Notes under the pieces: model-generated
Seen by the model: only the letters and a program-made list of their open reading frames with translations
What the model was told of the DNA's origin: nothing
The model's database searches: none
Assembly: GCA_024137785.1 (NCBI GenBank)
Contig: JAHRHZ010000009.1
Span: 27,867,912-27,931,911 of the forward strand
Length of the DNA stretch: 64,000 nt
Reading direction: 5' to 3'
DNA from: Ginglymostoma cirratum
Taxonomy: Eukaryota
Made by a program: the position numbers and the translations under genes
Shown here: piece by piece, positions 1 through 56,000 of the stretch
Layout of the letters: every line of letters starts with the position of its first letter
Position numbering within the stretch: position 1 is the first letter of the stretch

Positions 1-128
1 GAAGAAGGGTCTAGGCCCGAAACATCAGCTTTCCTGCTCCTCTGATGCTGCTTGGCCTGCTGTGTTCATCCAGCTCTACACCTTGTTATCTCAGATTCTC
101 CAGCATCTGCAGTTCCTACTATCTCTCA
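1..128 (+). mobile_element. Penelope-like pseudo-LTR fragment (family A) with hammerhead motif truncated by the window edge
   Basis: gaagaagggtctaggcccgaaacatc...ctgcagttcctactatctc is near-identical to copies at 24724-24830, 39658-39755, 40771-40865, 52042-52100 and 52998-53168. It starts with (CT)GAAGA-A-GGGT/CTAG/GCCC-GAAA. Confidence 0.8.
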
Positions 129-129
129 G

Positions 130-235
130 ACCTGATCTGAGTTTCTTCTGCAGGTTAGTGTGATCTCAGCCACCTGGAGGAATACCCAACAATGCAGAAA
201 GTAAGTCAACACCCTCTCCATTCATTCAGCATAAT
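130..235 (+). pseudogene. Decayed Myb/SANT-like domain, probably from a PIF/Harbinger accessory gene
   Basis: The frame from 130 reads T*SEFLLQVSVISATWRNTQQCRK*VNTL, resembling the W.EVA..VS......R...QCRKK.NDL consensus of Harbinger Myb-like proteins. It has two in-frame stops. Confidence 0.5.
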
Positions 236-984
236 TGCCATCATGTTCTCTCAGATACTTCTATCTCTGCTACCATTCCCACCAAAGTGCATGCTCCATC
301 CATCCCTCTCACTATTATCTGCAAAATCTTCTCTCACTCACTCTCACCCATGCCATTCCCCACAACACCCAAACCCTGCATGCCTTCAGTGCTACCTACT
401 CACTCATTTGAGACACCTCCCCAAGTGCACCAAAAGTAACAAGTGTGCCACCCATTTTTATTTTCCATAATACTTGCCTCCGTCTCAATGGAGGAGGAAC
501 ACTGCCCCCAGTAGAGCAAAAAGAATCAAGAGAGGTGATGAACTGCCCAATGTTCAGCTCCTCCCCCTTAATGTGGATGCTGCCCTGTGTGGTTGGCTGA
601 CTGTGTCCAAGTTCCTCAACTTATATTGGAGGCTGCCCTTGATTTACTGTGTTGGGAACACCCCTGAATGAAGGCATTCCTCGTGACTTGATTTAGGCCT
701 ACTTACAATCATGACAAACTTCAAGCTTTTGTACATGCATGAAAAGGCAAGGCAAGAAAGATTTGATGTAAGTCTGACTGAGGATGAAAATCCAAGACAA
801 GGCAAAACAAGGCAGGGTTGTGGATGCTGTGAGCATTCAAATAGACTCAAAGTAAGTGCGCTGTGGCAGTGAGTGAAGAGTTCAGAGATACAGCCTGATC
901 TATTCCATCAATTCGGTATGAGTCCCTGAGCATTAACTTCTTTTCTGTGATTGTTCAAATACAGTTGCTTGTGTAGAGCGAGTT

Positions 985-2105
985 CTTAGAGGTCTATAGC
1001 ATGGAAACAGGCCCTTCAGCCCAACTTACCCATGCTGCCCAGTTTTCACAATTTAAACTAGTCCCATTCGGCTGTGTTTGGACCATATCCCTCCATACCT
1101 ATCCTATCCATGTACCTGCCTAAATCTTCCTTAAATTATGAAATTGTACTTGCTTCCACCATTGCCTCTGGCAGCCCATTCCAGACACTCACCACCCAGT
1201 GTGGGAAAAATCTTTTGTATCTCTCCCCTCACAACTTAAACCTAGGACCTCTAGTTTTAGACTCCCCTACCATGAGGAAAGGCTGTCAGCTATCCACTTT
1301 ATCTATGCCACTCATTATTTTATAGACCTCTATAAGGTCACCCATCAGTCTCCTACGTTCCAGGGAAAAATGGTTGGATAGGTTGGAGCTATCTTTATAA
1401 TGCAAATCTCCTGCTCCAGGCAGCATCCTAGTTAATCTTTTCTGCACTCTTTCTAGTTTAATAATATCCTTTCTATAAAAGGGTGACCAGAACTGCATGC
1501 ATTACTCCAAATACAGACTCACCAACACTGTTGACAGCTGCAACAAGACATCCCAATTCCTATACTCAATGCTGATGAAAGCAAGCATGCTGAAAGCCTC
1601 CATCACCACCCTGTCTACCTGTAACTCCATTTCCAAGGAGCTATGAACCTGTACCCCCAGATCTCTTCATTCTATAACACTCCCCAAGGCCCTACCATTG
1701 ACTGTGTAAGCCCTCCCCTGGTTTGCCTTACCAAAATGCAACACCTTGCATTTATCTAAATCAAATTCCATCTGCCATTCCTTAGCCAACGGGCCCAGTT
1801 GATAACGATCTTGCTGCATTTCCAGATAACGGTCTTCATTGTCCATTATGCCACCAATCCAAGGTATCATCCACAAATGTACTAAACATACTTCCTAAAT
1901 TCTCATTCAAATCATTAATATAAATGATGAATAACAGTGGACCTGCACTGATCCCTGTGGTACACCACTGGTCACAGGCCTCCAGTCTGAAAAACCACCC
2001 TTCACCACCACCCTCTGTCTTCTACCATCAAGCCGAATTTGTATCTAAGTGGTTAGCTCTCCATGGATCCTGTGAGATTTAACCTTAGTCAATGACCTAC
2101 CATAC
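985..2105 (-). mobile_element. CR1 LINE, 5'-truncated (RT C-terminal part and 3' UTR), decayed
   Basis: ORF pieces QFWSPFYRKDIIKLERVQKRLTRMLPG and WQMEFDLDKCKVLHFG; CR1-type 3' end near 985-1030. Confidence 0.92.
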
Positions 2106-3183
2106 AGTGCAGTATTGATGTACAGAAGTGTACAGTAAATGGATCAGAGATGTGTCATGAGAGTTCTTAGAGCTGGCCAAATGCCAACGTGGCCAGTGCC
2201 ATTGTATATGATCTCCAACAGAGCAACGTATTCTCAGTACTGCACTGGGCTGAAATGATTCAAGGAACCAAGGGTACCAAACACAGTTGAGAACTAAGCT
2301 CTGTTCCAAACTACGTATCAGGAACATATTTTAAGCATTTGCGTCACAGAGCAATCAATCCTCTTCTCAGAAATGTGACTGTATTTATTGAAACACGGAA
2401 CTACATTGTCCTGTGCAAATTGACCATGTTTGACAGTTTCATCATTAGTCCTAATTTTAAAAAGCTATGTGCTATCTGTGAGGTATTTGAATAAGAGACA
2501 TACTATAGATAGGTGCATGTTGGTGACATAAAGAACCCTGTTATGAAAGAAGTAAAATTTGGTAATGTTTGTTAATATATGAAACAATATTTTGATTCTG
2601 AGGCGGAATGACTTTGAAGTCAATGCATAATGCGTACCAAGCAGACCGAGAGAAGTACTAACTGGCTTCAATCCAGATTCACTCCTACCATCCCTGATGA
2701 CCCCATTATGAGCAGTTTAGTTGATTGAGCCAAGGTATGCAGTGTTTCACAGATCCACTAACTCCATTATGTTTCCCTGCTGATGACAGCTGCAATATGT
2801 TAATGGAATATGTTTGGATGCTGTGGTCTTGGTACCACTTAAGACGTAAGACTAATTACCATAAGTTGGTGACAACAGGCGCAAGTGTCACTTCTTGTCA
2901 ATATCATTTGTGCCAGACCCTCCAATGTTATACGAGAGCATCATTTTATGATTTCAAACTCCCATGAACAGAAAGAGCTGCAAAAAAATTAAAACGTTAA
3001 TCTGTCAAACCACTCAAAGCTAGTATTCAACATTACCAGTATAATGTAATTTAAAGTATTTGTTTTCACAAATAATAATTTCAATACATAAATATCAGAT
3101 GCATAATACACAGTGCAAAAATAGCTAGCACTCTGTATGAAACTTATTAACCCTTTGAAAATTATGGCAACGTTTTTACAAGC

Positions 3184-3390
3184 AAACAGAAATTGCTGTT
3201 GAAACTCAGGAGGTGTGGCAGCTTTTGGGGAAAGGAGGCAGAGTTAACATTTCAAGTCCAATGACTCTTCTTCAGTCACTGGACCTGAAAATATAACTGC
3301 TTCCTTCCCACAGATGCCGATAGATGTGTTAAGTTTCACCAGCATTCTGTTTTTGTTTCAGTTCGCCAGTATCTGCAGTTCTTTGGTTTA
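3184..3390. mobile_element. Short inverted (fold-back) pair of PLE pseudo-LTR fragments (family B) with hammerhead motif
   Basis: Left arm aaacagaaattgctgttgaaactcag is reverse-complementary to right arm ttaagtttcaccagcattctgttttt. The minus strand at 3243-3275 reads CTGAAGA-A-GAGTC-ATTG-GACTT-GAAA-TGTTAAC. Confidence 0.7.
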
Positions 3391-3784
3391 TTGTAGGCAA
3401 GCTTTTAGATTTATTTTCTTGTTGTGGAATATTGTTCAGGAAGACAAGTTCCATAGTTGGTGATTTCTATTTTGCTAATTATATATAGCTGATACAAAAA
3501 CATAATTCTACATGTTAGAAAATATACCTTGAGAGAATTGGACAACAAGAGATCTAACTCAAACAGGAAGAAGGATAGATATTATAGAAAACACAAAATA
3601 AGATTTGTTCTGGCAATGTATTGTCTTCTTTGAAAGTTTGAGTTGACCACACGTATAATCAAATGTATAACCAAACGTTATACTTTGCATCCAATATGAG
3701 CAAGAAATATGTGTCACTGGCACTGGATGATGAATACTGGGTGGAAAATTATTCTGTTTTGCAACACTGATAGTCTATATTTAG

Positions 3785-4545
3785 ACTCAGAGTCATAGAG
3801 ATATACAGCACAGAAATAGACCCTTCGGCCGAACTCGTCCATGCCGACCAGATATCCTATATTGACCTAGTCCCATTTGTCAGCATTTGGCTCATGTCCC
3901 TCTAAACCCTTCCTATTTATATACCCAACCAGATGCCTTTTAAATGTTGTAATTGTACCCCCCCCCACCCCCACCACTTCCTCTAGCAGCTCATTCCAAA
4001 CATGCACCATCCTCTGCATGACAAAGTTGCCCCTTATCTTTCATCTCTCATCTTAAACCTTTGCCGTCTAGTTTTGGACTCACCTACCTCACGGAAAAGA
4101 CCTTGCCTATTTAACCTATCCATGCCCCTCATGATTTTATAAACCTCTATAAAGTCCCTCCTCAACCTCCGCTCCAGGAAAAATAGCCCCAGCCTATTCA
4201 GCCTCAGCCTATAGCTCAAACGCTCCAACCCTGGCAACATCCTTGTAAACCTACTCTGATCCCTTTCTAATTTCACACATCCTTCTCATAGGAGGGAGAT
4301 CAGAGTTGCATGCAATACTCCAAGAGTATCTGAACTAATGTCCTGTACAGCTGCAACATGACCTCCCAACTCCTATACTCAGTGCACTGACCAATAAAGG
4401 CAAGTATACCAAATGCCTTCTTCACTATCATATCTACCTGCAACTCCACTTTCAAGGAACTATGAACCTGCACTCACAAAAGACTTTGCTTAGCAACATT
4501 CTCCAGGACCTTACCATTAAGTCTATAAGTCCTGCCCTGATTTGG
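3785..4545 (-). mobile_element. CR1 LINE 3' fragment
   Basis: ORF KLERDQSRFTRMLPGLERLSYRLRLNRLGLFFLERRLRRDFIEVYKIMRG; CR1 3' tail at ~3785-3850. Confidence 0.92.
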
Positions 4546-6469
4546 ACAAACACAAAACAATTTCGCATTTTTTTAAAAAATGGTCATGCCAGAATGGAGG
4601 AAGCTGATTTGAGAGTGTAAAGTTCTAATAGCCATCCTTCAGTAATAACATAATTAAAAAGGTGTTATGATCAGCTCTGCCACACACTCAATGTGACAAC
4701 CTTTTCAAATTTAGTTCCCCCAATTGTACCATTGTTTAATTTTTTTTTTAAATGTAACATGAAGATGTTAAATCAATTGCAAAAATAATTTGCCATTAGA
4801 ATTTTAAGAGTAATGTTAAATCATGCAACTATATTATTAACTAATAATTTGTATATGTATTTCTCATACACTTTATTGGTAATACAAATATTTCTGGGGT
4901 GTCAAATGAAGCGACTGTTTTCTTCAGATCAGCATCAAAATAAGGTATAAAATCATCTGAATGAAAGATAATTTATCAGAAGATAATCCAGACAATTATC
5001 TTGTATCAATATTTCTTTAGCATATTAGGTATTGCCCTGTACTTGGTGGTAGAATATTGCATTCACCTTAAGGATATATTGTTATCACAGATAATAACTG
5101 CACCATGATAATTATAATTAATTATTCAGTAGGATTTAAAACAGAATGGGGTGTTTCTAGTATTCGTACATATGGAGAGGTCTTTCAGTGCTTGACTATG
5201 TTATTCAATAACAAAAGAATAGTTCAATTGGACCAATATTTTCCACTACTTTTATTATTTTCTTATTATTTAATATTATGTCAATTTACTGGCAGATCTG
5301 TGGCATAAGCAGGTTTTCTTGTATAATCCTGTACGAAATCAAGTCAGAGTTTTGTGGTTGTAGCGGTGACAAAGGAGGACTACAGCTATGGGCTTGAGCA
5401 CCTCAATGTGGACTTTATGAAAGCAATAAATTTTTATGTGTATATTGAACTGGCAAGTTTGCTGAAACACACGCAGCTTAACTGCACTGTGTAAGATGAA
5501 ATGCATAGGTAGCATAGCAATGCATAAGCAATTATGGATTTAGAACAGAATAATATTAGTGATATATTAAATAGTAGCAGCAATAATCGTAATAGAGAGG
5601 ATTTATTTATTTAACTTTTTAATGCATTTTGCTTTAAATCAACTGGGGGTGGGGGAGGAACATAGCAAACATTGTCCATCTTAACTGACAAAAATTAGCT
5701 ATATAAACCATGTCTGAAATCAAGCTACCCATACATGAAAAAGTGTTGTTTTTACAGTTTGATCAATGTGTACTTTTTTCTAATACAGTAATAACACTCA
5801 TTCTGACATATTCATTTGAAATTCCTGATCATTTTATGGACCGAGTGAATAGCAGTCCATTGTGGATAATAGAAAATCCTCGAGCTCCATTCCATTTGGA
5901 TTCAGATGTGTACAGATTTTAGTCTGAATTTTGTCCAGTTTGGATGATCTTTGGTGACTCAGATTTTGAACTTGCCCCCACGCCCTGAATTTTTCCGAGA
6001 GCTACGTGGAAAAAATACCAGCGCTGCCTCAAAAACAGGCGAGCCCTGAAATTGGATGGTGTGGTCCCCATTTTCTCATTGCTACACAGGCACCAAAGCT
6101 TTACATGTGGTGGGCAGGAAGTACAGACACATTGCACTTCGGAAATGCACTGGGATCCCAGCCAAGACCAGTAAAGATGTGGGTATCTCATTTTCTAAAT
6201 TAAGTGAATAGTAAACTTTCCTTGAGATCTTTCAGTGGTTGTAATAAACTGTACTTTCTGCCATCCCTTTTGGCAATATTGAGAGGTGTGAAGCATTTGA
6301 AGCCTCAGTTATTGACGCTTCAAAGGTCTGTCAAATAAACACTTTTAAGGGTTGTAAGAAAAGCAGTCATTCAAAACACTTCTAATATGACTGTGGCTTA
6401 TCTTAAAGTTGCTCAGCATTCCTGTTTATAAGATAATTAGATTAGAGAGAGGTGGATAGAAAAGGAGGA

Positions 6470-7125
6470 GAAGGTTGCATTGTTGATCAAGTAATCACAT
6501 ATTGTAATGAGGGGGGATGATATCTTGGAAGGGTCATTACATGACTTTTAGTTACTCAGATTTTAAACTCAGACTTTCAGGAAGTAATAAGGATAGAAGA
6601 AGAAAACATAAGAGTGGTCAACAAGGTAAAGTAAAGGTCCCTAAACAGTCAGGGAGAGATAGAGGATCAAATATGGAATCAAATTTCAGAGAAGCGTAAG
6701 AATAATAAGGCCGTAATAGATGATTTTAACAACCCAAATACTCAATGGGATAATTTTATCATCAGAGGGCAGGAATAATCAAAATTCTTAAATTACAACT
6801 TTTTTAGCCAATACGTAGAAAACCCAACAAGGAAGGGGGCAGTTCTGGACCTAATTCAAAAATAAGCCCAAGCAGGTGGAAAGCATATCAATAGGGGAGT
6901 ATTTCGGAGAAGTGACCATACTCGCTAGGATTTAGGGTAGTTCTGAAAAAAGATATGGATGGGCCAAGTTTAAAAGTTCTAAACAAGGGAAGGGTTAATT
7001 TTACTAAGTGAAGATAGAACTTGGCCCAAGTAGAATCGGAAATGCTACTTGCAGATCAAACAGTGTCAGATCAGTAGGACACATTCAAGGAGGAGATAGC
7101 GAGAGTAGAGGGTAAATGTGTTTCA
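6470..7125 (+). mobile_element. Old CR1 LINE ORF2 (AP-endonuclease region), first segment of an interrupted copy
   Basis: Degenerate GDFN-like (gatgattttaac), PTR.GA.LDL (ccaacaaggaagggggcagttctggaccta) and SDH (agtgaccat) motifs, colinear with the younger copy at 50520-50750. Confidence 0.7.
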
Positions 7126-8902
7126 ATTTTGGCTGTCAATGAGCGGGACAGCCTCAGAATGAAAGTTCTCATTCAGGTGAAGATGGCGTGGGCATAAGGG
7201 ATGCCAATCTATGGGCAAATATCCTCTGGGTGATGAGTTGTTGTGGGAAAGGTGCATGGCAAGAAATCAGATGTGAGAGACACCAACGGGGCATGGCAGG
7301 TAAGTAATGAGGAAAATTTAAAATAGGGTGAGAAACTCATGAGGCTTCGCACAACGAACCCTTCAGAAAACTTGATGCAACTTGGACTTATTCAAAACAG
7401 CGAAAGATACAAATCAAAGAGTGGTACAAAGAGAAATCTGGGTGTAAAACCATAAGACCATAAGACTTAGGAGCAGAAATAAGGCCATTCAGCCCAATGG
7501 GTCTGCTCTGCCATTCAATCATGGCTGATAAGTTTCTCAACCCCATTCTTCCACTTTCTCCTCATAACCCTTGATCTCTTTGATAATCAAAAAACTATCT
7601 ATGTCTGTCTTAAATATACTCAATGGCCTCTGCAGCCTTCTGTGGTAATGAATTCCATGATTCACCACTCTCTGGCTGAAGAAGTTTCTCCTTAACCCAG
7701 TTCTAAAGGGTCTTTCCTTTACTCTAAGACTGTGTCCTTGGTTCCTAGTTTCTCCTGCTAATGGAAACATCTTCTCAATGTCCACTCTGTCCAGGCCATT
7801 CAGTATTCTGTAAGTTTCAATTAGCTCCCTCCTCATTCTTCTAAACTCCATCAAGTATAGGCCCGAAGTCCTCAAAACCTCCTTATATGTTAAGCCTTTC
7901 ATTCCTGGGATCTTTCGTGTGAACCTCCTCTGGACCTGCTCCAGGGTCAGTACATCTTTCCTGAGGCATGGGGCCCAAAACAGCTCACAATATTCTAAAT
8001 GTGGTCTGAACAGGGCTTTATAAAGCCTCAGAAACATATTGCTGCTTTTACATTCTCGTCCTTTCGAAATAAATGCCAACATTGTATTTGCCTTCCTAAC
8101 TACCGACTCAACCTGCAAGTTTACATTAAGGGAATCCTGGACAAGGACTCCCATGTCCCTTTGCACTTCAGATTTCTGAATTTTCTCCCCATTTAGAAAA
8201 TAATCTTTGTCCCTCTCCTTCCTACCAAATTGCATGACCCCACATTTTCCCACATTGTATTCCATTTGCCACTTCTTTGCCCACTGTCCTAACCTGTCTA
8301 AATCCTTCTACAGCCTCCCCACTTCCTCAATCCCACCTGTGCCTCCACCTATCTTTGTACCATCTGTAAACTTAGCCAGAATGTCCTCAGTTCCTTCATC
8401 TAGATCATTAATGTATAAAGTGAAAAGTTATGGTCCCAACACTAACCCATGTGAAATGCTACTAGTCACTGGCTGCCATCCTGAGAAAGACCCCTTTATC
8501 CTCACTGTCTGCTTTCTGCCAGACAGCCAATCTTCTATCCATGCTAATACCTTTCCTCTAACACCATGGGCCCTTACTTTACTCAGCAGCCTCTTGTGCA
8601 TCACCTTGTCAAAGGCTTTCTGGAAGTCCAGGTAGATAACATTCATTGGCTGTACTTGGTCTAACCTTTTTGTTAACTCCTCAAATAATTCTAACAGATT
8701 TATCAGGGATTTTCTCCTCTTGATGAAACAGTGCTGACTTTGCCTGTTTTACCATGCACTTCCAAGCATTCAGAAATCTCATCCTTCACAATGGACTCCA
8801 AAATCTTACCAACAACCAAGGTAAGGCTAATCAGTCTGTAATTTCCTGTTTTTTGCCTTATTCCCTTCTAAAACATTAGCAATTTTCCAGTCCCCGCACA
8901 CA

Positions 8903-9240
8903 GGGGAGGCAGTGGCCTATTGGTATTATCACTGGACTGTTAATCCAGAGACCCAGATAGCATTCTGGGGACACTGGTTCAAATCCTGCCATGGTAGATT
9001 GTGAAATTTGAATTCGGAATTAAGAATCTAATGATGACCATGAATCAATTGTCAGGAAAACCCCATCTGGTTTGCTAATGTCCTTTAGGGAAGGAAACTG
9101 CCATCCTTACCTGGTCTGGCCTACATGTGACTCCAGACCCACAACAATGTAGTTGACTCTTAACTGCCCTCTGGGCAATTAAGGATGGACAATAAATGCT
9201 GCCTGATCAGTGACACCCTCATCCTGCAAAGGGAAAAAAG
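8903..9240 (+). mobile_element. tRNA-derived SINE inserted into CR1 ORF2
   Basis: Pol III A box tggcctattgg (8913-8923), B box ggttcaaatcc (8976-8986), 3' tail gggcaattaaggatggacaataaatgc and an A-rich end. A second copy lies at 39067-39430. Confidence 0.88.
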
Positions 9241-10917
9241 AACACCATCCCTGATTCCAGTGATACCTGAAAGATCACCACTAACACTTCTACTATCTCC
9301 CTCAGAACTCTGGTGTATAGTTCATCTCATCCAGGTGATTTATCCACCTTCTGACATTTCAGCTTTTCTAGCACTTTGTCCTTGGTAATGGCCACCATGC
9401 TTACCTCTGCCCCCCCACCTCCTACCCCGACTCTCTTGAACTTTTGGTATATTACTCTTGTCTTCCGCCATGAACACTGACGCAAAGTATTTGTTTAGTT
9501 CCTCAGCTATTTCATTGTTACCCGTTACTACTTCCCCAGCGTCATTTTCCAGTGGCCCAATGTCCACTTTTGCCTTTCTTTTGCCCTTTATATACCTAAA
9601 GGAACTCTTGCAATCTTCTTTTATATTTCTGGCTAGCTTACCCTCATATTTAATCTTCTCCTGCCTCCTTTTTTCAGTTGTCTTCTGTTGGTCTTTGTAG
9701 GCTTTCCAATCCTCTGGTTTCCCACTGCCCTTCGCCACATTATATGCTTTCTCTTTTGCCCTTATGCTGTCCCTGGCTTCCCTAGTCAGCCATGGTTGCC
9801 TCATCCTTCCTGCTTCTTTTTCCTAGGGATGAATTTTTGCTGTGTCTCCCGAATTACTCCCAGAAACTCCTTGCCATTGCTGTTCTACTGTCTTTCCTGC
9901 TAGGCTTTTCTCCCAGTCAATTCTGGTCAGCTCCTCCCTCATGCCTTAAAGTTGCCTTTATTCAACTGTAATACCATTACATCTGATTCCACCTTCTCCC
10001 TCTCAAATTGCAGAGTAAATTCTATCATGTTATGGTCACTGCCTCCTAAGGGTTCCTTCACCTTAAGCTCCCTTATCAAGTCTGCCTCATTGCATATCAC
10101 TAAATCCAAATTGCCTGTTCCCTAGTGGGCTCTACCACAAGCTGCTCCAAAAAGCCTTCTCATAAACATTCCACAAAATCCCTTTCTTGCGATTCACTAT
10201 CAGCTGGATTTTCTGAGGCCACCTGCATATTGAAATCCCCTCTGATCACAATAACCTTGCCTTTCCTGTCTGCCTTTTCTATCTCCTGGTGTACTTTGTG
10301 CCCTAAATCTGACTACTGTTTGGAGGCGTGTACGTAACTCCCATTATAGTTCTTTTTTTAACCTTTTCACTTCCTCAACTCTAACCACACAGGTTCTATA
10401 TCATCTGACTCTACATCATTTCTTGCCATTGATTTAATTTCATTTCTAACTAATAAGGCAACCCCACCCCCTCTTCCTACCCACCTGTATTTTCGATAGA
10501 TTGTAAATCCTTGGATATTTAGTTCCCAGTCCTGGTCCCTTTGCAGCCATGTTTCTGTGATGCCAACAACATCATACCTGCCAATTTTGATCAGCGCCAC
10601 AAGCTTAATTACCTTCTTTCATATTCTGGGTGCATTCAAATACAGCACTTTCTGTCCTACATTGACCATCCCTCTTGTCATTGTCATCCCTTTATCCAGT
10701 GTGGTGGGGGTTACATTCCTAACCCTTTCCAAACACTCTGTCCTATTTTGTGTGTTGGAGACTTTAATAACTGCTCCTGAATTCTCCTTTCCTTTCATTT
10801 ATTTTTCATACTTTTCCATGCAGTTGAATACACACCCACAGAAGTTAACCTGCTGTTTTGTATGCAATTGACCATTATACTTCTTAGAGTTTTATCCTTC
10901 CCTTGCCCCCTAACTTT

Positions 10918-20568: not shown

Positions 20569-20569
20569 T

Positions 20570-22240
20570 TGTATCAGTCTTTGGTAAGATTTTTGAGCCC
20601 ATTATTAAGGATGAGATTTTGGAGTCCTTCGAAGTGCATGGTAAAGTAATGCCTGACAAATCCGTTAGAATTCTTTGAGGAGGTAACAAGCAAGTTAGAA
20701 AAAAAGAGAGCCAATGGGCGTAATCTATTTGGATTTCCAGAAGGAATTTGACAAGGTTCTGCACAAGAGGCTGATGAATAAGATAAAAGCCCATGGTGTT
20801 AGGGACAAGGTAAGAGGATTGGCTGATTAGCAGAAGGCAGAGAGCAGGGATAAAGGGATCTTTTCCAGGATGGCAGCCATTGACTAGTGGAGTTCTGCAG
20901 GGGTCAATGTGGGACCACAAATATTCACCGTATATATTAATGCAGATGACACAAAGGTAGGTGGAGGGACAGGTAGTATTGAAGAAGTGAAAGGCTGCAG
21001 AAGGTTTGACAGGCTAGGAAAGTGGGCAAAGAAGTGGTAGATGGAATATAATGTGGAAAAGTGTGAGGTTATACACTTTGGTAGGAAAAGTTATAGCATA
21101 GACTATTTTCTAAATGAAGAAGAATTTGGAAATATGAAGGTCAAATGGACTTGGGAGTCCTAGTTCAGGATTCTCTAAAAGATAACATGTAGGTTCAGTT
21201 GACAGTTAAGAAGACAAATTGCATTGTTAGCATTCCTTTCAAGAGGGCTAGAATACAAGAGCAGACATTTGCTGCAGAGGCTGTATAAGCCTTTGGTCAG
21301 AATGCATTCTGGAATATTGAGGGCAATTTTAGGCCCCACATCTAAGAAAGGATGCGCTGGCATTGGAAATGGGCCAGAGGATGTTTACAAGGATGATCCC
21401 AGGGACAAAGGGGTTGTCAGAGGAGGAGCTATTGAGGTCTTTGGGTCTGTATGCAATGGAGTTTGGAAGGATGAGGAGGGATCTAATTGAAATTTACAGA
21501 ATATTGAGCGTTGTGGATTGAATGACTGTGGAGAAGATGTTTCCGCTTGTAGGAGAGACAAGGATTCAAGGATACAGCCTCAAAGTGAACGGACAACCCT
21601 TTAGAACTGACATGAGGAGGAATTTCTTCAGCCACAGGGAGTTATAGAGTCACAGAAACATTGGCAGCTCATTCCATGCACACATCACCCTCTGCATGAA
21701 AAAGGTGCTCCGTAGGTCCCTTTTAAATCTTTCCCCTTTCACTTTAAACCCATGCCATCTAAATTTGGACTCCCTGCTCTGGGGAAAAGACCTTGTCTAT
21801 TTGCCCTGTCCATTCCCCTCATGATTTTATAAACTTCCATAAGGTCTCAGGCTCCCATGCTCCAGGGAAAATAGCTCCAGCCTATTCAACCTCTCCCTAC
21901 AGCTCAAACCCTCCAACCCTGGCAACACCTTTGTAAATCTTTTCAAGTTTCACAACATCTTTCTTATAGCAGGGAGACCAGAACTGTATGCAGTATTCCA
22001 AAAGTGGCCAAACCAATATCCTATACAGCTGCAACATGACCTCCCAGAGGTCATGAGGGCCAAGACATTCAGTGTATTTAAGACAGCAATCAATAGGCTC
22101 CTGATTAGTAAGGGGATCAAGGGTTTTGGGGAGAAAGCAGGTGAATGGGTTGAAAAACACCTTAGACATGATCAAATGGCAGCGCAGACTCGATGGGCCA
22201 AATGGCCTAATTCTCCTCCTACATCTTACAGTGTCTTGTT
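20570..22240 (+). mobile_element. CR1 LINE RT/3' part, interrupted by an antisense CR1 fragment
   Basis: IYLDFQKEFDKV, LAFLSRGLEYKSR..L.LYK.LVR.H and 3' UTR gatgggccaaatggcctaattctcctcctacatctt. Confidence 0.9.
21640..22046 (-). mobile_element. CR1 3' fragment inserted antisense within CR1
   Basis: The minus strand encodes [34 protein letters not shown]; the sequence resembles 3990-4370. Confidence 0.85.
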
Positions 22241-22254
22241 CATAAGTCTAAGGA

Positions 22255-24723: not shown

Positions 24724-24830
24724 TATCAGAGATAAAAGGTACTGCAGATGCTGGAGAATCCGAGACAACAAGCATGGGGCTGGATGAACACAGCAGGTCA
24801 AGCAGCATCATAGGAGCAGGTAGGAGCAGG
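24724..24830 (-). mobile_element. PLE pseudo-LTR 3' fragment (family A) with a 12-bp TSD
   Basis: Reverse complement of positions ~32-128. It is flanked by the perfect direct repeat ttggtatagttg (24712-24723 and 24831-24842). Confidence 0.85.
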
Positions 24831-24849
24831 TTGGTATAGTTGCCAGCAA

Positions 24850-38204: not shown

Positions 38205-39625
38205 AAATAGAGCCACACAGCATGGAAACAGATCCTTCAGTCCAACTCATCTGCACCAACCAACCATCCCAATCTGACCTAGCCCCAGTTGCCAGCATTT
38301 GGCCCATTTCCCTCTCAACACTTCTTATTCATATACCCTTTCAGATGCCTTTTCAATGTTGTAATCACACCACCCTCCACCACTTCCTCTGGCAGCTCGT
38401 ACCGTACATGCGCCACACTCTGTGTGAAAAAAATTGCCCCTCAGGTCTCTTTTGAATCTTTCCTGTCTCAACTTAAACCTATGACCCCTAGTTTTTCACT
38501 CCCCTGCCCTGGGAGAAAGATCTTGGCTTTTCACCCTATCCATGTCCCTCATCATTTATATACCTCTGTAAGGTCACACTTCAGCCTCCAACACTTCAGG
38601 GAAATTAGTTTCAGCCTATTCAGCCTCTACCTATAGCGCAAAACCACTAGCCACAGCAACACCCTTGTAAATCTTTTCTGAACCCTTCTAATATTAACAA
38701 CATCTTTCCTACAGCAGGGAGACCAGGATTGAATGCAATATTCTAAAAAAGGCCTCACCAATGTCTTGTACAGCCACAACATGACATTACAAGTCTTATA
38801 CTCAATGCATCAACCAATGAAGGCAAGCATGTCAAACACCTTCTTCACCACCCTGTCTACCTGTGATTCCACTTTCAACGAACAGTGAATCTGCACCCCT
38901 AGGTCTCTTTGTACAGCAATACACCCCAGGAAACTACCATTAACTGTGTAAGTCCTGCTGTAGTTTGTCTTATCAAAATGCAACACATCACATGTACCTA
39001 AATTAACTCCATCTGCCACTCCTCGTCCATTGGCCCATCTGATTGAGGTCCTATTGTACACTGAGATTTTTTTTTCTTAATTCATTCTTGGGATCGGGGC
39101 ATCACTGGCTAGGCAGAATTTATTGTTCATCTCTAATTGCCCAAGGGCAGTTAAGAGTCAACCACATTGCTGTGGGTCTGGAGTCACATGTCGGCCAGAA
39201 ACCAGGTAAGGATGGCAGCTTCCTTCCCTAAAGGACATTAAGTGAACCAGATGGGTTTTTCCAACAATTGACAATGGATTCACAGTCATCATTAGATTCT
39301 TAATTCCAGATATTTATTGAATTCAGATTCCACCATCTGCCGTGGCGGGATTCGAACCTAGATCCCCGAAACATTATCTGGGTCTCTGAATTAACAGTCC
39401 AGCAATAATACCGCTGGGCCATTGCCTCCCCAATATTCACTGTCCACTACTCCACCAATTCTGGTGCTATCTGTAAACTTACTAATCTCCAATATACACA
39501 TTCAAATCATTTATATAAATAATGAAAAACACTGGATCCAAACTGAACCATATGGCACAGCGCTGGTCAAAAGCCTCCAGTCCGGAAAACACTCTTCTAC
39601 CACCACCCTCTGTCTCCTACCTTCT
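38205..39625 (-). mobile_element. CR1 LINE 3' part with a SINE insertion
   Basis: CDVLHFDK...QRDLGVQIH.SLKVESQVDRVVKK on minus; homologous to 985-2105 and 3785-4545. Confidence 0.9.
39067..39430 (-). mobile_element. tRNA-derived SINE (same family as 8903-9240)
   Basis: Minus-strand A box TGGCCCAGCGG (39411-39421), perfect B box GGTTCGAATCC (39348-39358) and a poly-A tail at ~39067. Confidence 0.9.
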
Positions 39626-39657
39626 CATACAAGCTCACTGAGCTAAAAGACGACATT

Positions 39658-39755
39658 GAGATAACAAGGTGTAGAGCTGGATGAACACAGCAGGCCAAGC
39701 AGCATCATAGGAGCAGGAAGGCTGACGTTTTGGGCCTAGACCCTTCATCAGAAAA
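39658..39755 (-). mobile_element. PLE pseudo-LTR fragment (family A) with hammerhead motif
   Basis: Minus: TTTT-CTGATGA-A-GGGT-CTAG-GCCC-AAAA-CGTC (G12 mutated to A). Possible TSD acRacatt. Confidence 0.8.
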
Positions 39756-39959
39756 ACAACATTTTTGAGCTTGATTTAATCCAGGAGTTCGGGCCCCTAA
39801 CTAGAGCTGACAAGTACCACATGTCATCTCATTTGGGCAATACTCATTGTATTAAATGCCATTAAAATAGCCAGCAGTTGGCCAGTGAAATCCCTTCCCT
39901 GAGAAATACTGACCATTGAGAGACCATGATCCTTCCAGCCCCAGACTCAATCAGGGCAA

Positions 39960-40440
39960 AACTAAAAAGAGAAAATGTTGGAAAATGTTAGCAGATCTGG
40001 CAGCATCTGTAGAAAGAGGAGCAGAGTTAATGTTTCAAGTCCAGTATGACTCATCTTCAGAACTGAAAGGAGCTGGAAAATTGGTGTGTTTTTTATGCTG
40101 TTGACAGAGATGGAGGAGGAGCAAGTGAAACAGATAGTGAAGCTGTCCAGAGCAAAATACAAAGGGAGTGTTAATGGTGGTGAATGAAAGATAGAGATGT
40201 AAAATAGGTCTAAATGAAAAGGAGAAAATTGGCCCATTCTGCAGAGAGTGAAACCAACAAGGCACAAACAAGACATGGCTGGGAAAAGAGAAGGATGGAT
40301 GTTCATAATTAAAATAGAAAACTAAAGTTATGCTCTGAAGTTATTAAACTCGACAGAGTCACAGAGGCTGTAAGGCATAAGAAAATGAGGTGCTGTTCAT
40401 CCAGCTTGTGTTGTTTTTTGTTGGAATACCATAGCAGGCC
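39960..40440 (-). mobile_element. Old Penelope-like element 3' end (GIY-YIG C-terminus plus family-B pseudo-LTR)
   Basis: The minus strand from ~40412 reads QHKLDEQHLIF...LQP...EFNNFRA* (PLE endonuclease end). Hammerhead CTGAAGA-T-GAGTC-ATACTG-GACTT-GAAA-CATT at 40027-40062. Confidence 0.75.
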
Positions 40441-40770: not shown

Positions 40771-40865
40771 GAAGGGGAAGAAGGGTCCCAACCCAAAACG
40801 TCAACTTTCCAGCTCTTCTGATGCTGCCTGGCCTGCAGTGTTCCTCCAGCTCCACACTGTTATCA
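40771..40865 (+). mobile_element. PLE pseudo-LTR fragment (family A), decayed hammerhead
   Basis: gaagaagggtcccaacccaaaacgtcaactttccagctcttctgatgctgcctggcctgc matches 1-90. Confidence 0.75.
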
Positions 40866-41816: not shown

Positions 41817-41953
41817 AAAATCCAAAAGAACTACGGATGCTGTAAATCAGGAACAAAAACAGAAGTTGCTGGAAAAACTCAGCAGGTCTGGCAACATCTG
41901 TGAAGGAGAAAACAGAGTTAACGTTTCAGGTCCGGTGACCCTTCCTCAGAACT
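41817..41953 (-). mobile_element. PLE pseudo-LTR fragment (family B) beginning at a hammerhead
   Basis: Homologous to 45868-46007, 39960-40065 and 3184-3390. Confidence 0.8.
41916..41953 (-). ncRNA. Minimal type-I hammerhead ribozyme motif
   Basis: AGUU-CUGAGGA-A-GGGUC-ACCG-GACCU-GAAA-CG-UU-AACU: intact core, stem II, palindromic AACGUU, and perfect stem I AGUU/AACU. Confidence 0.78.
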
Positions 41954-42157
41954 ATTAAGGTGTGTTGCTTCATAATAAGTAAAAAGAAGAAAACTCTTGG
42001 AAAAGACGGGCTCAAGTTGTTTGTGTTGGCCTCTGCGTACAGTGCAAATGATTCCATTGTGGTGTCAAACATAGTTTTTAAAGTACACATGTGGCCTTTG
42101 GAATTCCCCAACATTTTTCAAAAGTTATCCACATCTAAACAAATGTTTCAAGGGTTA

Positions 42158-45372: not shown

Positions 45373-45867
45373 AAATTGTAATTTCTTTTTCTCTGTCTGT
45401 TTCTAACTTTGCACATGTGACAGTATGAAACAGTGACTTAAAAACCTCTAGGACAAGTCTGTGATAACAATTAATCTGCTTTATTTTTAAATTTGCAGTT
45501 TGCTGTTAAAATCATTTAAATTAAAAAGTCTCTCTGGTGGTAGGAAAGTACATACTTCACTTATTAAAAATATTTTGATCATAGGCAATAATAAAATTTA
45601 TAATCTCTGTCTGCGGCACTCAGTATATAATGCTGTACTTGCATTAGTCTTCAGCTTTAATTTTTTTGTCCATAAATGTACGTTTTGCAAGTCATATAAC
45701 CACATACAATGGATCAAACAGGTGAGAAGAGCCATGTTGCGAAGATGTGTGAGGGTTTGAGACATGTTGACACAAACAAGCTCTACATGGCAAACAGCAA
45801 TGACAAGTTGTTCTTCCAGCAAAAAAAATGAAGAATAAAGCTGGTTTCAAGCTAGAAAATTTGTTAC

Positions 45868-46007
45868 AAAATAAAAACTGAAAGAATTGCGGATGCTGTA
45901 AATCAGAAATAAAAACCAAAATTACTGGAAAAGCTCAGCAGGTCTGGCAGCATCTGTGGAAAGAAATCAGAGTTGATGTTTTGGGTCAAGTGAACCTTCC
46001 CCCAGAT
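45868..46007 (-). mobile_element. PLE pseudo-LTR fragment (family B), decayed hammerhead
   Basis: Closely matches 41817-41953; the core is mutated (CTGGGGGA...CCCAAAACATC). Confidence 0.75.
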
Positions 46008-49000: not shown

Positions 49001-49169
49001 TGAATAGCTGCACCAAAGAACCAGTTCAGGCATGAAAGGCAGAATAGTTGTCTCCTTTGTTTCATTATTTTATGATGCTATAGTATATTGTATTTTTAAA
49101 CTTTCTGTACTACAATGTCCTTAGCCATAACCTTTTACCTCCTCTGAAATGATCAATGCAAGAGATCAA

Positions 49170-49315
49170 TGTAAGATTCCCACATCGGCTGAGGCTACCA
49201 TGAAGGATTCTATTTCTCAGCCTCTCCCCTTACCTCAGACATGGTAACCTCAGGTTAAGTGACCACCCATTACGCTAATGAGAGAGCAGTCCCATTTAGA
49301 AAGTTTACCTTTAAT
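49170..49315 (+). mobile_element. Short SINE-like remnant
   Basis: ggctgaggctaccatgaagga...ctcaggttaagtgaccacc...taatgagagagcagtccc...tttaccttt resembles a short interspersed repeat I recall from sharks; not verified. Confidence 0.4.
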
Positions 49316-52300
49316 ATATGTGAGTAAACTTTTATCCCTATCCTGTGTGCTGCCAGTGAGTAGCATGTGAGCAAAGAATTATTACTATAGGATGTTGATG
49401 TCATTCATGTTAACAATGGTAGCTCTGATATTAATTATAATATCTCTGTAATAAAATGCCTCATTTATTTTATCATTAAGTTAGGACTCACTGGATGCAC
49501 ACAGACAGTGCAGCTCTGCATAATACGACCCATAAGATCCTGGAGAGTTTTGGCACATGTATTGCATGAGAGCAAATTTACACCATCAAGTTGAATTTTC
49601 AAAAGAATTCTGCATGTAGCTTTTTCCACAATCATTGAAACTGCACATGAATTTCTTAAATTGGTTGTGTCACTCCCAAGTTGCATCCATCCATGCAAAA
49701 TACTAGTTTATGTGTATTTCCTGAATGAATGATAATATAGAATTCGCCTGGAAAGTCATAGGTCCACTCAGGTCCAATGTCACTTGATGTCAACAAGGGA
49801 GTTTTCTGGGCCTGGGTATCCATTTTTATCTTCTTTCTTATCTAGCCACAGCATATTTTGTCTAGGGGCATGCAAAATCGGTTCCAGACATTGGTTGAAG
49901 GAATTAAACAATGCCCTAGGGGGTGCTTTTGCTAACGCTGTTGGGGAGGTTATAAACTAATGTGGCAGGGGGACGGAAAGCAAATGAGGAGGTTAGTGGA
50001 CAGTAAGGAGGTAGTAACTACAGCCTGTAAGGGACTAGATAATGAAGTCAGTATGACTAAGGGGAAGAGTAGGCAGAGAGCAGATGATGAACGCAAAGGA
50101 ACAGGTGGTCTGAGGGGCATTTGTTTTAATGCGAGAAGTGAAGTAGGTAAGGCAGATGAACTTAGGGCTTGTATTAGTACCTGGGAGTATGATGTTATTG
50201 CTATTACTGAGACTTGGTTGAGGGAAGGGCAAGATTGGCAACTAAATATCCCAGGATATAGGTGCTTGAGGTGGGATAGAGAGAGAGGTAAAAGGGGTGG
50301 AGGTGTTGCATTACTGGTCAAAAAGGATATCACAGCTGTGCTGAAGGAAGACACTATGGAGGACTCGAGCAGTGAGGCAATATGGGCAGAGCCCAGAAAT
50401 AGGAAGGGTGCGGTAACAATGTTGGGGCTGTACTACAGGCCTCCCAACAGCAAGCATGAGATAGAGGTACAAATATGTCGACATATTATGGAAAGATGTA
50501 GGAACAACAGGGTGGTGGTGTTTGGAGATTTTAATTTTCTCGACATTGACTGGGATTCACTTAGTGTTAGGGGTTTAGATGGAGCAGAATTTGTAAGGAG
50601 CGTCCAGGAGGGTTTTATGGAGCAGTTTGTAAATAGTCCAACACGGGAAGGGGCCATACTGGACCTGGTGTTGAGGAATGAGCCCAGCCAGGTAGTTGAA
50701 GTTTCAGTAGGGGATTACTTTGGGAATAGTGATCACAATTCCGTAAGTTTTAGAATACTCATGGACAAAGATGAGAGTGGTCCTAAAAGAAGAGTGCTAA
50801 ATTGGGGGAAGGCCAACTATAGCAAGATTTGACAGGAGCTGGGGAATGTGGATTGGGAGCAGCTGTTTGAGGGTAAATCCACACTTGATATGTGGGAGCC
50901 TTTTAAAGAGAGGTTGATTAGAGTGCAGGACAGACATGTCCCTGTGAAAATGAGGTATAGAAAGGGTAAGATTCGGGAACCATGGATGACAGGTGAAATT
51001 GTGAGACTAGCAAAGAGGAAAAAGGAAGCATACATAAGGTCTAGACGACTGAAAACAGACAAAGCTTTGGAAGACTATCGGGAAAGTAGGACCAATCTGA
51101 AATGAGGAATTAAGAGGGCGAAAAGGGGTCATGAAATATCTTTAGCAAACAGGGTTGAGGAAAATCCCAAAGCCTTTTGTTCATACATAAGGAGCAAGAA
51201 GGTAACTAGAGAAAGGGTCAACCCACTCAAGGACAAAGGAGGGAAGTTATGCGAGGAGTCAGAGAAAATGAGTGAGATTCTTAATGAGTACTTTGCGTCG
51301 GTATTCACCGAGGAGAGGGACGTAATGGATGTTGCGGTTAGGGATAGATGTTTGATTACTCTCGATCAAGTCGGCATAAGGAGGGCGGAAGTGTTGGGTA
51401 CTCTAAAAGGCATTAAGGTGGACAAGTCGCCAGGTCCGGATGGGATCTTGCTGAGGGAAGCAAGAGAGGAAATAGATGGAGCCTTAACAGATATCTTTGC
51501 AGCATCCTTGAGCACGGGTGAGGTCCCAGAGGACTGGAGAATTGCTAATGTTGTCCACTTGTTAAAGAAGGGTAGCAAGGATAATCCAGGTAATTATCGA
51601 TACCCGATGTCAGTGGTGGGGAAGCTGCTGGAGAAGATACTGAGGGATAGGATCTATTTACATTTGGAAGAAAATGGGCTTATTAGTGATAAGCAGCATG
51701 GTTATTTACAGGGAAGGCCATGTCTTACCAACTTGATAGAATTATTTGAGGAAGTGACAAAGTTGATAGATGAAGGAAGGGCTGTAGATGTCATATACAT
51801 GGCATTCAGTAAGGTGTTTGATAAGTTTCCCCATGGTAGGCTGATGGAGAAAGTGAAGTCGCATGGGGTGCAGATGTACTAGCTAGATAGATAGAGAACT
51901 GGCTGGGCAACAGGAGGCAGAGAGTTGTAGTGGAAGGGAGTTTCTCAAAATGGAGAACTGTGACCAGTGGTGTTCCACAGGGATCTGTGTTGGGACCACT
52001 GTTGTTTGCAATATACATAAATGATCTGGAGGAAGGTATAGCAGCATCATAGGAACAGGAAAGCTTGACGTTTTGGACCTAGACCTTTCATCAGAAATGG
52101 ACATCATCTATGGGTTCTCCGACAGTGGCCTCATGGCCAATGACAGCGGGTACATTGTGGGAGATGTCCTGGATATGGCTGGGGATTTGGCAGGTGGGGG
52201 AAGCCCATTTTGGGTGGTGGGCACCAGTAAGTTTACTGTACTTACGGTTTTTAGTGACCAATAAAGCTGAGTAGAATTGTGAGTTCAAGTTGTGGATCCT

Positions 52301-52597
52301 ACGGAGAATAAAAAACAGGAGAGGCCCTTTGCAGGTCTGGGAGAGGGAGGCTTTGAGCTGGGGTAGTCTTGATTGTAGTGCCTGGAGATGCCAGCGCATT
52401 GCTGCAAGTGTGTGTTTCAGGAGTCGCAGGGAGAAACGCTTCTGAAGGGTCTCAATGTTCTGAATGTAGATATTGTCACAGTTGGGGCTAAATTGGGAAG
52501 GCTTGAATGTGGACTGTAGTCCATTGGGGATGATCTGGTTCCGTAGGCAGGTACTAAGAAAGGTGATGTGGCTGTGGTACCTGGTTTGCTTCAGGAC

Positions 52598-52997
52598 NNN
52601 NNNNNNNNNNNNNNNNNNNNNNNNNNNNNNNNNNNNNNNNNNNNNNNNNNNNNNNNNNNNNNNNNNNNNNNNNNNNNNNNNNNNNNNNNNNNNNNNNNNN
52701 NNNNNNNNNNNNNNNNNNNNNNNNNNNNNNNNNNNNNNNNNNNNNNNNNNNNNNNNNNNNNNNNNNNNNNNNNNNNNNNNNNNNNNNNNNNNNNNNNNNN
52801 NNNNNNNNNNNNNNNNNNNNNNNNNNNNNNNNNNNNNNNNNNNNNNNNNNNNNNNNNNNNNNNNNNNNNNNNNNNNNNNNNNNNNNNNNNNNNNNNNNNN
52901 NNNNNNNNNNNNNNNNNNNNNNNNNNNNNNNNNNNNNNNNNNNNNNNNNNNNNNNNNNNNNNNNNNNNNNNNNNNNNNNNNNNNNNNNNNNNNNNNN
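52598..52997. other. Assembly gap (400 N)
   Basis: Run of N. Confidence 1.
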
Positions 52998-53005
52998 CAG
53001 GAAAG

Positions 53006-53039
53006 CTTGACGTTTCGGGCCTAGACCCTTCATCAGAAA
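53006..53039 (-). ncRNA. Minimal type-I hammerhead ribozyme motif (core intact)
   Basis: UUU-CUGAUGA-A-GGGU-CUAG-GCCC-GAAA-CG-UC-AAG; GUC cleavage triplet and ACGU palindrome. Confidence 0.8.
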
Positions 53040-56000
53040 TGGTTGATGAAGGATCTAGGCCTGAAACGTCAAGCTTTCCTGCTCCTATGATGTTGATTGG
53101 CCTGCTGTGTTCATCCATCTCCACACCTTGTTATCTCGGATTCTCCAGCATCTGCAGTACCTATTATCTCTGGAGGAAGGTGTAGATGGTTTGATTAGCA
53201 AGTTTGCAGATGACACTGAGATTGGTGGAGTAGCAGATAGTGAAGGGGACGTCAGAGAATACAGCAGAATATAAATAGATTGGAGGGTTGGGCAGGGAAT
53301 GGCAGATGGAGTTCAATCCAGGCAAATGCGAGGTGATGCATTTTGGAAGATTCAATTCAAGAGCAAACTATACAGTAAATGGAAAAGCCCTGGAAAAAAT
53401 TGATGCACAGGGAGATCTCGGTGTTCAGGTCCATTGTACCCTGAAGGTGGCAATGCAGTTCAATAGAGTGGTCAAGAAGACATACGGCATGCTTTCATTC
53501 ATCGGACGAGGAATTGAGTACAAGAGTTGGCACGTCATGTTACAGTTGTATAGGGCTTTGGTTCGACCACATTTGGAATACTGCCTACAGTTTTAGTCAC
53601 CACATTATCAAAAGGATGTGGATGCTTTGGAGAGGGTGCAGAGGAGGTTCACCAGGATGTTGCCTGGTAATGAGGGTGCTAGCTATGAAGAGAGGTTGAG
53701 TAAATTAGGATTACTTACATTAGAAAACAAAGGTTGAGGGGGAACCTGATTAAGGTCTACAAAATCATGAGAAGTATAAACAGGATGGATAGCAAGAAGC
53801 TTTTTCCCAGAGTGGGGGACTCAACTACTAAGGGTCACTATTTCATGGTGAGAGGGGAAAAGTTTAAGGGAGATATTCATGGAAAGTTCTTTACGCAGAG
53901 GCTGGTGGGTGACTGGAACGTGTTGCCAGCAGAGGTGGTAGAGGCGGGCACGACAGCATCATTTAAGATGTATCTAGACAGATACATGAATGGGCAGGGA
54001 GCAGAGGGATACAGATCCTTGGAAAATAGGCAACAGGTTTAGATAGCTGATCTGGATTGGTGCAGGCTTGGAGGGCTGAAGGGCCTGTTCCTGTGCTGTA
54101 ATTTTCTTTGTTCTTTGTTCTAACCACTTCTTCATATTCAGAAACCCTGAGCAGCTAGGGCAGTCTTCTCGTTGGACATAAACTTTGTCTGAGTAAGAAT
54201 GGAAGAGAATGAGATGTCATGGCAGAGGATTTCAGATTTCCTTGCTATTACTCCTATCAATGACTTTATATTTCATTTCAGCTGCACATTCTTCCTTGAG
54301 CAAATGAGCTTGACAGGAAATTTTCGTATAAGCCTCCAAACGTGCAGGAATCAGTATAGATTTTAGTAATGTCTGAGTAAGTGCAAACCAGAACATGTGG
54401 AGTCAGTATTTCCTCTTCCTGCTGGTGGATGACAAAATAGCCAAAATGCAGTCATGTAAATGTCTACTGTCTTGAACGTCTGGTCCATCAGAGAGGCAAG
54501 CCCTTGACCAAGCTGCACAAGAAGAAACAAATTGAATGGCAATGGTAAAGGTAGAGATTGTAATGCTTCCTAATTCAGTAGCAACCTGCAGTTTCAACAC
54601 TGAGACAGTAATCATTACTACTTTTCCTACAGTAAAGATAAAGATGTGAAGCTCAGTTCCTGAAGGGGTGATGCACTTCTGTCAATGTATATCAACTTTG
54701 GATAAGAACAAACATAGATCCAAAGAGCAAAGTTATACAGCCTTCACATTTCAGAGTAGATATTCTGTCTGTTGGTACTCAAGGATTCTGTAGCACTTAA
54801 ATAATTAAAAATAACACATTCAAGACACTTTCTATGAAGTCAAATGTTGATTGCAAAGCTTTGTTTGTAGAGTACTGATTAAATGGCAATTCTGGACTGT
54901 GACTAAAGTAGGTTTATGACAAGGGCTAGTCTATTTAGAGTCCAAAGGCTGTACATCGAATGCATTAGGTATTGTTTTATAAAAGACATTCACAGAAGCT
55001 TTAGAAGAAATTTAAAACTCAAAGATTGACATTCAATAAAAGAGGTGCATTGGTTATGGATATTTTTTGTATTAAACTATCCTTAAGTTAAACAAGACTT
55101 CAAATGAAGAAGATAAAATGTAATCTCTTATCCTCAAGTTTATTGAAGTCTTCAAAGCATTTGAAATGCTGACCTGACGGACAAGGAACAGGAGTACAGT
55201 ATCACTGTCATTGAATCTAGAAAGTGATATTTTGATACCTGAATGCACTGGGAGGATGTTAATGAAGGTGCTTAATGCTGTCATTGACAGTAAGACAATC
55301 CAGGACACAAAGAGAAACAGAACTCGGATGTGGCTTGCCATGTGGTTTATAATATTCAATTTGAAAAAAAAGCTCAGGCCTCCAGAGGGGCTAGTCAGAA
55401 AAGCTGTAGACAGATGCTATGAACCCTGGAGTCCACTGCAAATGCACTCAGGTCAGGCAGGAAGGTTAGAGCCACGTTGCTGTATAGAAATGAACAGAAG
55501 AAGAAATTTGGACTTTTATGGCCTCAACAGGAAATACGTATATTATTTCTTTTTATAATCGCAACTTTTGATTATACTCGGAAACAATGAATTTTCTGTA
55601 AAATAAAATTTTGAAGTAACATTTTGATATCTAACTGTTGAGTATGCAGTAAATTATGGTTTTGTGGACTGATTTTTAAGAAAATAATAGGTTAAATTAT
55701 TGCAACTAATGTTTTCCACCTGTCAGTAAATCAAACATTTTTGTAAAAATTAACAGGATTCGATATTACAGTGTTTACATATCAAATTTGTGATTTAATC
55801 ATTAATGTTACAAGATAATTGAAAAAAATTAGTGCAATTATCTAATCTTACATCATGAGCCAGATTCAGCTGCATGTCTGATATTGGTTCAATGTAAGCT
55901 CTGGCCAATAGCATCAAATTTAAATAAACAAACTGCAGACCTTAATGTACCAGTTACTATTGTACATCATGGGCAGTATACAACAATTAGGTGAAATGTA

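Follow-up and report, generated by a model that had tools for sequence, protein, structure and literature searches.

Hammerhead ribozymes in the ends of Penelope-like elements (PLEs), together with inverted pairs of copies, tails and internal initiation, are already published (PMC4209133, PMC8557442, PMC11167929, PMC3846280), and we compare with them four PLE families (A–D) from a 64,000-nt stretch of the Ginglymostoma cirratum genome (contig JAHRHZ010000009.1, positions 27,867,912–27,931,911; hereafter the window). The metazoan PLE hammerheads of Cervera and De la Pena (2014; PMC4209133) resemble the shark motifs in their minimal core, the bulged base before stem II, the G10.1–C11.1 pair and the palindromic 15.2–16.2, and they too occur mostly as single remnants, with opposite-strand pairs 100–700 bp apart, although the available parts of that paper do not treat 5′ ends. 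The Anolis Poseidon element PAc (Frangieh et al., 2024; PMC11167929) is similar in that two internal starts of reverse transcription bound the tail, both strands are cut, and the template used in vitro is mainly uncut RNA. However, its open reading frame (ORF) begins inside the ribozyme, whereas the AUG of family A lies at +166 (0 being C3 of CUGANGA), and the text available for PAc mentions no cap run-off, no extra G and no jumping to the 3′ ends of RNAs. Penelope of Drosophila virilis (Schostak et al., 2008; PMC2377424) likewise has a start site with an Initiator in the terminal repeat, a tail (34 bp), partial tandems and inverted arms; 46 nt separate its start from a downstream 75-nt intron, the end of which abuts helix I (PMC4209133), whereas the start of family A RNA would be the first base of the ribozyme. 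Elements of the Neptune clade (defined in PMC8557442) share with shark families A, B and C a reverse transcriptase (RT), a Zn-finger-like linker, a C-terminal GIY-YIG, a tail, an inverted 5′-truncated copy and a hammerhead.

The element type is thus known, and the end pattern of family A is the new part; the place where copies end is a more unusual point than the density of motifs. The motifs are minimal hammerheads in the termini of the four families, and we consider it probable that the RNA of the youngest family begins, capped, 4–5 nt before the core and is copied uncut from an internal start to the cap. A full-text literature search, with subscription papers and Repbase reports outside its range, turned up no description of a PLE hammerhead next to the cap, of cap run-off or of such a ribozyme load in cartilaginous fish; Figure S2 of PMC11167929 plots genomic copy ends and could bear on novelty. 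Regeneration of the pseudo-long terminal repeat (pseudo-LTR) and the role of the hammerhead are stated as open questions in two papers (PMC2377424, PMC8557442), and the first of these saw no obvious mechanism for the regeneration. The end pattern makes both questions testable, as tens of thousands of near-identical copies of a recently active vertebrate family record replication intermediates at base resolution.

Penelope-like identity of the four families

The original prediction took the short repeats for ribozyme-bearing PLE termini, and all four families indeed join upstream to Penelope-like ORFs bearing GIY-YIG. The upstream sequence of family A encodes RT (RVT_1, E 9e-8), then a cysteine knuckle, then GIY-YIG (E 2e-5), and a 906-aa open frame holds both RT and GIY-YIG; the length of the ORF, estimated from overlapping copies, is ~1,030 residues. 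The family B terminus lies 300–325 nt downstream of related frames in seven loci, and tblastn matches of families B and C to the family A protein span RT and endonuclease. For family C the ORF link was not found in the first set of loci examined; it was found in two of three further stretches, one of them only weakly, and came through a relative (L369, E 9e-24). The family D terminus ends a GIY-YIG frame (E 0.0017, below Pfam's cut-off), and no RT core was recovered for this family. A Zn-finger-like linker (CxxxxCxxC-type) lies between RT and endonuclease in A, B and C; neither it nor the knuckle was seen in family D frames. Placed by domain features rather than by an RT tree, A, B and C would be Neptune-type and D Poseidon-type.

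Some long copies of family A have direct 5′ repeats, the partial tandem that forms a pseudo-LTR. An inverted copy adjoins 80 of 267 family A copies, and the C and D pairs in the window are likewise inverted. The tail, 30–40 bp long in such elements, is optional, 3′ ends of family A clustering near +93 and +127 and family B having two end classes. Since the long copies of family A are mostly 98–99.9% identical to each other and all 115 scored matches to its RT are free of stops, this family has been active recently.

At family level the features of a minimal type I hammerhead are all present (CUGANGA, stem II, GAAA, NUH, stem I and the palindrome). Stem I (AGUU/AACU, UCAC/GUGA, GCA/UGC), stem II and the palindrome (ACGU in A, B and D, AGCU in C) differ among the four families with pairing kept despite the changes, as had been noticed before, a comparison between families that is not a formal covariation test. 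Among 248 family A copies with at most five changes, the frequent variants are at N7, in the loop and at one U–G/U–A pair, and core changes above a few percent are confined to CpG sites. Stem I of family A is weak, with G–U pairs, and the hammerhead fold reaches −4.0 kcal/mol, whereas an alternative fold, on a stretch with 3 nt more, reaches −9.3 kcal/mol; the minimum-energy folds of monomer and dimer are not the hammerhead. Low activity has been reported for such minimal motifs (PMC4209133), and they have been reported to need the protein of the element (PMC11167929).

Where copies end and what precedes the end

We mapped 5′ ends in families A and B. The 267 aligned family A copies were position-picked, tail-picked or from neighbouring loci, and 220 were left after duplicates and ends at gaps or locus edges were dropped. 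Ends are piled up at −7 to 0 (81) with 47 more at +1 to +17, and only one falls at −20 to −8, with 53 copies reaching beyond −20; further in, six lie at +18 to +27, 24 at +28 to +37, four at +38 to +47 and four beyond. The cliff sits on CCATTTC, where family B has TCAGTTC. The Initiator consensus is YYANWYY, which CCATTTC fits. For family B, 25 of the 30 loci picked by their core have ends only a few bases away from it, as judged by eye. Target duplications of 9–17 bp flank the insertions and rule out later deletion as the cause of the short copies.

The base that precedes the ends was then compared. In family A it is G in 10 of 18 ends at −5/−4 and in 11 of 68 at +1 to +46 (p 0.0013). Genome-wide, the first 100 rows were counted by hand in a list of 1,495 ends at −4 and in one of 1,146 ends at −5, and G stands before 50 and 52 of them respectively, with ~27 expected in each case; when possible head-to-head partner rows are set aside, the counts are 39 of 66 and 37 of 68 respectively. 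Forty junctions were examined, the first 20 rows of the −5 list and 20 of the first 31 of the −4 list, the second set being without ten head-to-head or duplicated rows and one repeat and hence leaning towards G; eight of the 40 were insertions with both a duplication and extra bases, and in six of these the extra bases end in G. Moreover, an ORF fragment is joined directly to −5 to −3 in ten internally deleted family A copies, with G at the junction in nine, A-runs of 3–12 at five, and unique flank after the tail. The same type of joint with G between is found in 45 RNA reads. Untemplated G has been read as cap copying for LINE-1 and SVA (PMC4859970), and the junctions are such as an RT would leave after copying the cap and jumping onto the 3′ end of an RNA. 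A splice acceptor at −5 was rejected, as the upstream bases that belong to the element lack a terminal AG, and so was a fixed extra G in the master sequence, as G precedes both −4 and −5 ends.

The jumps in L183, L193 and L195 and at window position 52100 land within ~10 nt of one ORF position, near which RNA joints also recur; it is possibly a hot spot for early RNA 3′ ends.

We propose that RNA polymerase II would start at −5/−4 on the Initiator-like motif, which is also the 5′ strand of stem I, and that the endonuclease would nick the target, giving the duplications observed. Reverse transcription would start at +93 or +127, where 3′ ends are observed; the internal start is proposed by analogy with the Anolis element, for which such a start at the tail was shown in vitro (PMC11167929). 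The complementary DNA (cDNA) would reach the cap after about 100–130 nt and copy it as an extra base, consistent with the observed pile-up and G. The short cDNA could then insert alone, join head-to-head with a second cDNA primed at the other DNA end, or jump to an RNA 3′ end, and all three product structures are observed among the copies. A jump by homology to the 3′ repeat would restore a full-length copy without a seam and leave no trace. Most of the copied RNAs were uncut, because the templates still carried the whole ribozyme. The ribozyme would need a partner copy, and cutting is predicted to remove a capped leader of 32–33 nt. The model predicts an exact start site, a 100–130-nt cDNA with one extra base, and a 32–33-nt capped cleavage product.

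LTR elements make minus-strand strong-stop DNA by priming near the RNA 5′ end, running off at the cap and transferring to the RNA 3′ end. A wider proposal, which we hold tentatively and at somewhat less than even chances, is that PLEs replicate by a target-primed form of strong-stop synthesis, with 5′-near priming, cap run-off and a transfer to the RNA 3′ end that rebuilds the pseudo-LTR, and that the cap-adjacent dimeric hammerhead is a switch decapping only transcripts of sufficient length for two copies. In LTR elements strong-stop synthesis is primed by transfer RNA (tRNA), whereas in PLEs the primer would be nicked target DNA and most short cDNAs would be integrated as they are.

The same short copies might instead derive from a separate 130-nt non-autonomous RNA resembling that of a short interspersed element (SINE), rather than from run-off on full-length RNA. 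They are very numerous and have target duplications of their own, but the same −5/−4 end also starts copies that continue into the ORF (L186, L189, L193, L197) and joins ORF fragments at the ten junctions; G before both −4 and −5 ends is hence not a fixed first base, and subfamily marks and both tail ends are common to short and long copies. We regard this origin as improbable. Copying from the 3′ repeat as in long interspersed elements (LINEs), with a pause or nick at −5 to −3 unrelated to the RNA 5′ end, could draw on the C-rich tract just upstream in family A and on the preference of the Anolis enzyme for ATT, which is present at −4 (PMC11167929). It leaves the extra G and the A-run jumps unexplained, however; only one of 220 copies ends at −20 to −8, and family B has the same boundary after a different upstream sequence, so that we judge it very improbable.

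Several observations weigh against a capped start at −5/−4. The modal family A end is −3 rather than −4/−5, with T as the preceding base in 33 of 41 cases, which we read as trimming and microhomology. The 53 copies that pass seamlessly beyond −20 are explained just as well by a start in the 3′ repeat, and of the long copies that carry a direct 5′ repeat, five reach past −100, for which a tandem read-through RNA, a circle or a second jump is needed. Some of the family A sample comes from clusters on one contig. For L186 and L188, two of the nine junctions with G, the base may come from the ORF side or from chance, and family B has no clear G excess (eight of 20 at −4/−3), its unbiased set being mixed with family A. 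Finally, the RNA reads map no start site: in run X18 (poly(A), unstranded), 36,879 of 12.9 million reads aligned, mostly with signal from embedded copies and with no pile-up of starts or ends.

RNA reads and possible ribozyme cleavage

Run X19 gave 11 aligned reads. About 0.29% of the X18 reads examined match the element end (L185:814-2300), on both strands and mostly embedded in other transcripts, and none of the listed sequence records holding the element is on record as RNA.

The family A cut is predicted between +27 and +28, and the trough at +18 to +27 (six ends, none at +23 to +27) is followed by a rise at +28 to +37 that starts from there (p 0.0007). An independent list gave four ends at +15 to +26, 18 at +27 to +37 and ten at +38 to +47 by hand count, in which 71 of 100 rows were counted after 26 out-of-register full-length rows, two duplicates and one internal deletion were dropped, the first 30 rows being script-checked. 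It is possible, though we would put it a little below an even chance, that this second cluster reflects cleavage in vivo; the alternative is a stall at the folded motif. The cluster is flat, and simple insertions end mostly at +32 to +38, as a stall before folded stem I would give.

Cleavage could also have a larger part, as in the route proposed in PMC4209133, in which paired ribozymes would cut the transcript to unit length, circularized or bridged RNA would be the main template and short copies would be by-products. Besides the step at the cut, over-unit-length copies exist, and +27/28 is the commonest 3′ end (12 of ~85 loci, hand count) in 100 direct tandem junctions. This excess is slight, however, and microhomology accounts for similarly high peaks at +19 and +23; family B has no step at its cut (its copies being old and the set mixed with A), and the class attributable to cleavage numbers 24 of 220 against 128 ending at −7 to +17. 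Re-ligated circles would leave no trace, so long copies could still use this route, but as the main one we consider it unlikely.

The family A 5′ leader (L199, −5 to +166) has four upstream AUGs, all out of the ORF frame, one within the ribozyme core and the other three in a shared frame whose stop comes just ahead of the ORF start; of the four, only the first would be lost on cleavage. In family B, the cut site is followed by a pyrimidine tract with CAG at its end (41855–41915, minus strand, and other copies), which resembles a 3′ splice site; among the RNA-read rows listed, no splice joint matched it.

Insertions in the window and the genomic load

All 14 motif stretches of the original prediction were located at their coordinates and strands, and blastn sorts them into four families, about the number proposed (Table 1). 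In the window, a strict descriptor of the minimal hammerhead (CUGANGA, at least four pairs in stem II, GAAA-NN-UH) matched five times, whereas 100 dinucleotide shuffles gave 0.12 matches on average and never more than one. The Rfam search suggested as a check gave no hammerhead match in the window even at E≤5, the minimal form being without helix III. About half of the copies had been thought to be core-mutated; mutated copies exist, but that fraction was too low, as only five of 14 keep both CUGANGA and GAAA-NN-UH (3243, 29311, 40027, 41916 and 53006), and core boxes plus the ACGU palindrome are kept in two only (41916 and 53006). A box match at 52064 was spurious.

Table 1. PLE-derived features of the window, with family assigned by blastn and the start of each predicted motif
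Feature	Family	Position	Strand	Motif	Details
Terminus	A	1..126	+	1	Core cut by window start; extends through full tail (+127)
Old terminus	B	3184..3279	-	3243	Core boxes intact, palindrome lost
Core-less copy	A	24726..24820	-		5′ end +35, just past predicted cut; 16-bp target duplication, one mismatch
Head-to-head pair, one insertion	C	26044..26721	.	26129, 26630	Motifs 26129-26165 (-) and 26630-26666 (+); 11-bp duplication at 26033 and 26720
Head-to-head pair	D	29254..29834	.	29311, 29754	Motifs 29311-29351 (-) and 29754-29793 (+); spacer is C-terminal end of Poseidon-type endonuclease frame
Short copy	A	39657..39754	-	39722	-3 to +93, tail absent; G12 mutated
Old terminus	B	39957..40064	-	40027	Core boxes intact, palindrome lost
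Older copy	A	40777..40864	+	40776	5′ end inside core; G12 mutated
Short copy, fully intact motif	B	41817..41952	-	41916	Begins with 5′ strand of stem I (-4); target duplication of 11 bp; cut predicted after 41920
Short copy	B	45867..46003	-	45971	Core mutated; target duplication ~10 bp
3′ piece of composite insertion	A	52042..52100	-	52064	-6 to +54; upstream joined to ORF fragment
ORF N-terminal fragment within composite	A	52100..52597	-		tblastn 52416-52100, E 3e-38; assembly gap 52598-52997 next
Composite 5′ end	A	52998..53042	-	53006	Motif fully intact, start at -6; cut predicted after 53009
Composite inverted arm	A	53044..53168	+	53043	+1 to tail; whole insertion has 17-bp duplication (52025, 53169; one mismatch), target LINE

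Judged by target duplications and inverted arms, the 14 motifs reduce to ~10 insertions. The family C pair is one insertion event, and the family D pair is probably one, with inverted arms and without a convincing target duplication. Motifs 52064, 53006 and 53043 share a single insertion (52042–53168), in which an inverted arm is combined with a 5′ end, an N-terminal fragment of the ORF and another end that bears the ribozyme. The core-less family A copy was missing from the earlier list. Three further CUGANGA sites (32150, 46087 and 56865) were rejected, having no relatives in the window and failing the descriptor; the first belongs to a single stretch, CUGACGA...GACGAAAC (32150–32185, plus strand), that is hammerhead-like in look.

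The very large hammerhead load that the window had led us to expect holds genome-wide. Exact patterns matched 38,979 cores in family A, of which they cover a part, and 10,006 in family B, at least 48,985 in all, with none for the reversed controls, and tail patterns gave 90,622 and 55,940 matches. In a sample of 91 position-picked stretches, 29 were without readable sequence and the other 62 (598,152 bases) held 55 strict motifs, compared with 0–2 in ten shuffles; 43 of them have palindrome and stem I. Scaling by four exact patterns (55 matches in the sample, 195,547 in the genome) gives ~195,000 strict motifs and ~150,000 with palindrome and stem I, or ~150,000–200,000 intact-looking ones, an order-of-magnitude estimate given that the four scale factors differ more than fourfold. 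Published counts are ~4,000 for coelacanth and ~9,000 for Xenopus (PMC4209133), far below the shark load, though the descriptors differ, and the count alone would equal or exceed the largest reported figure that we found, 126,247 in axolotl (PMC7229834).

Very high hammerhead counts and derivation from PLE ends are shared with non-LTR retrozymes (PMC7229834; bioRxiv 10.64898/2026.07.22.740005), which are tandem repeats of 170–400 nt, whereas the shark copies are dispersed or inverted. Tandem non-coding hammerhead repeats of the retrozyme type were not found; direct core tandems are rare, with 100 close ones genome-wide in family A. Two short tandem arrays of bare ribozymes (G000:C87:27750052-27750238 and G000:C222:31293687-31293872), with units of ~35 and ~43 nt, resemble repeated jumps or incipient retrozyme-like repeats.

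Assembly gaps lie between inverted arms at 52598–52997 and at many other loci, so that head-to-head insertions are under-resolved and some appear twice. Several PLE insertions of the window sit inside LINE fragments, which we take to be CR1-like (986–2056, 3795–4583, 7542–8812, 20581–22149, 34900–36100 and 38207–39624). A tRNA-related SINE-like repeat, with a weak tRNA match, is present as two inverted copies (8903–9170 and 39144–39431).

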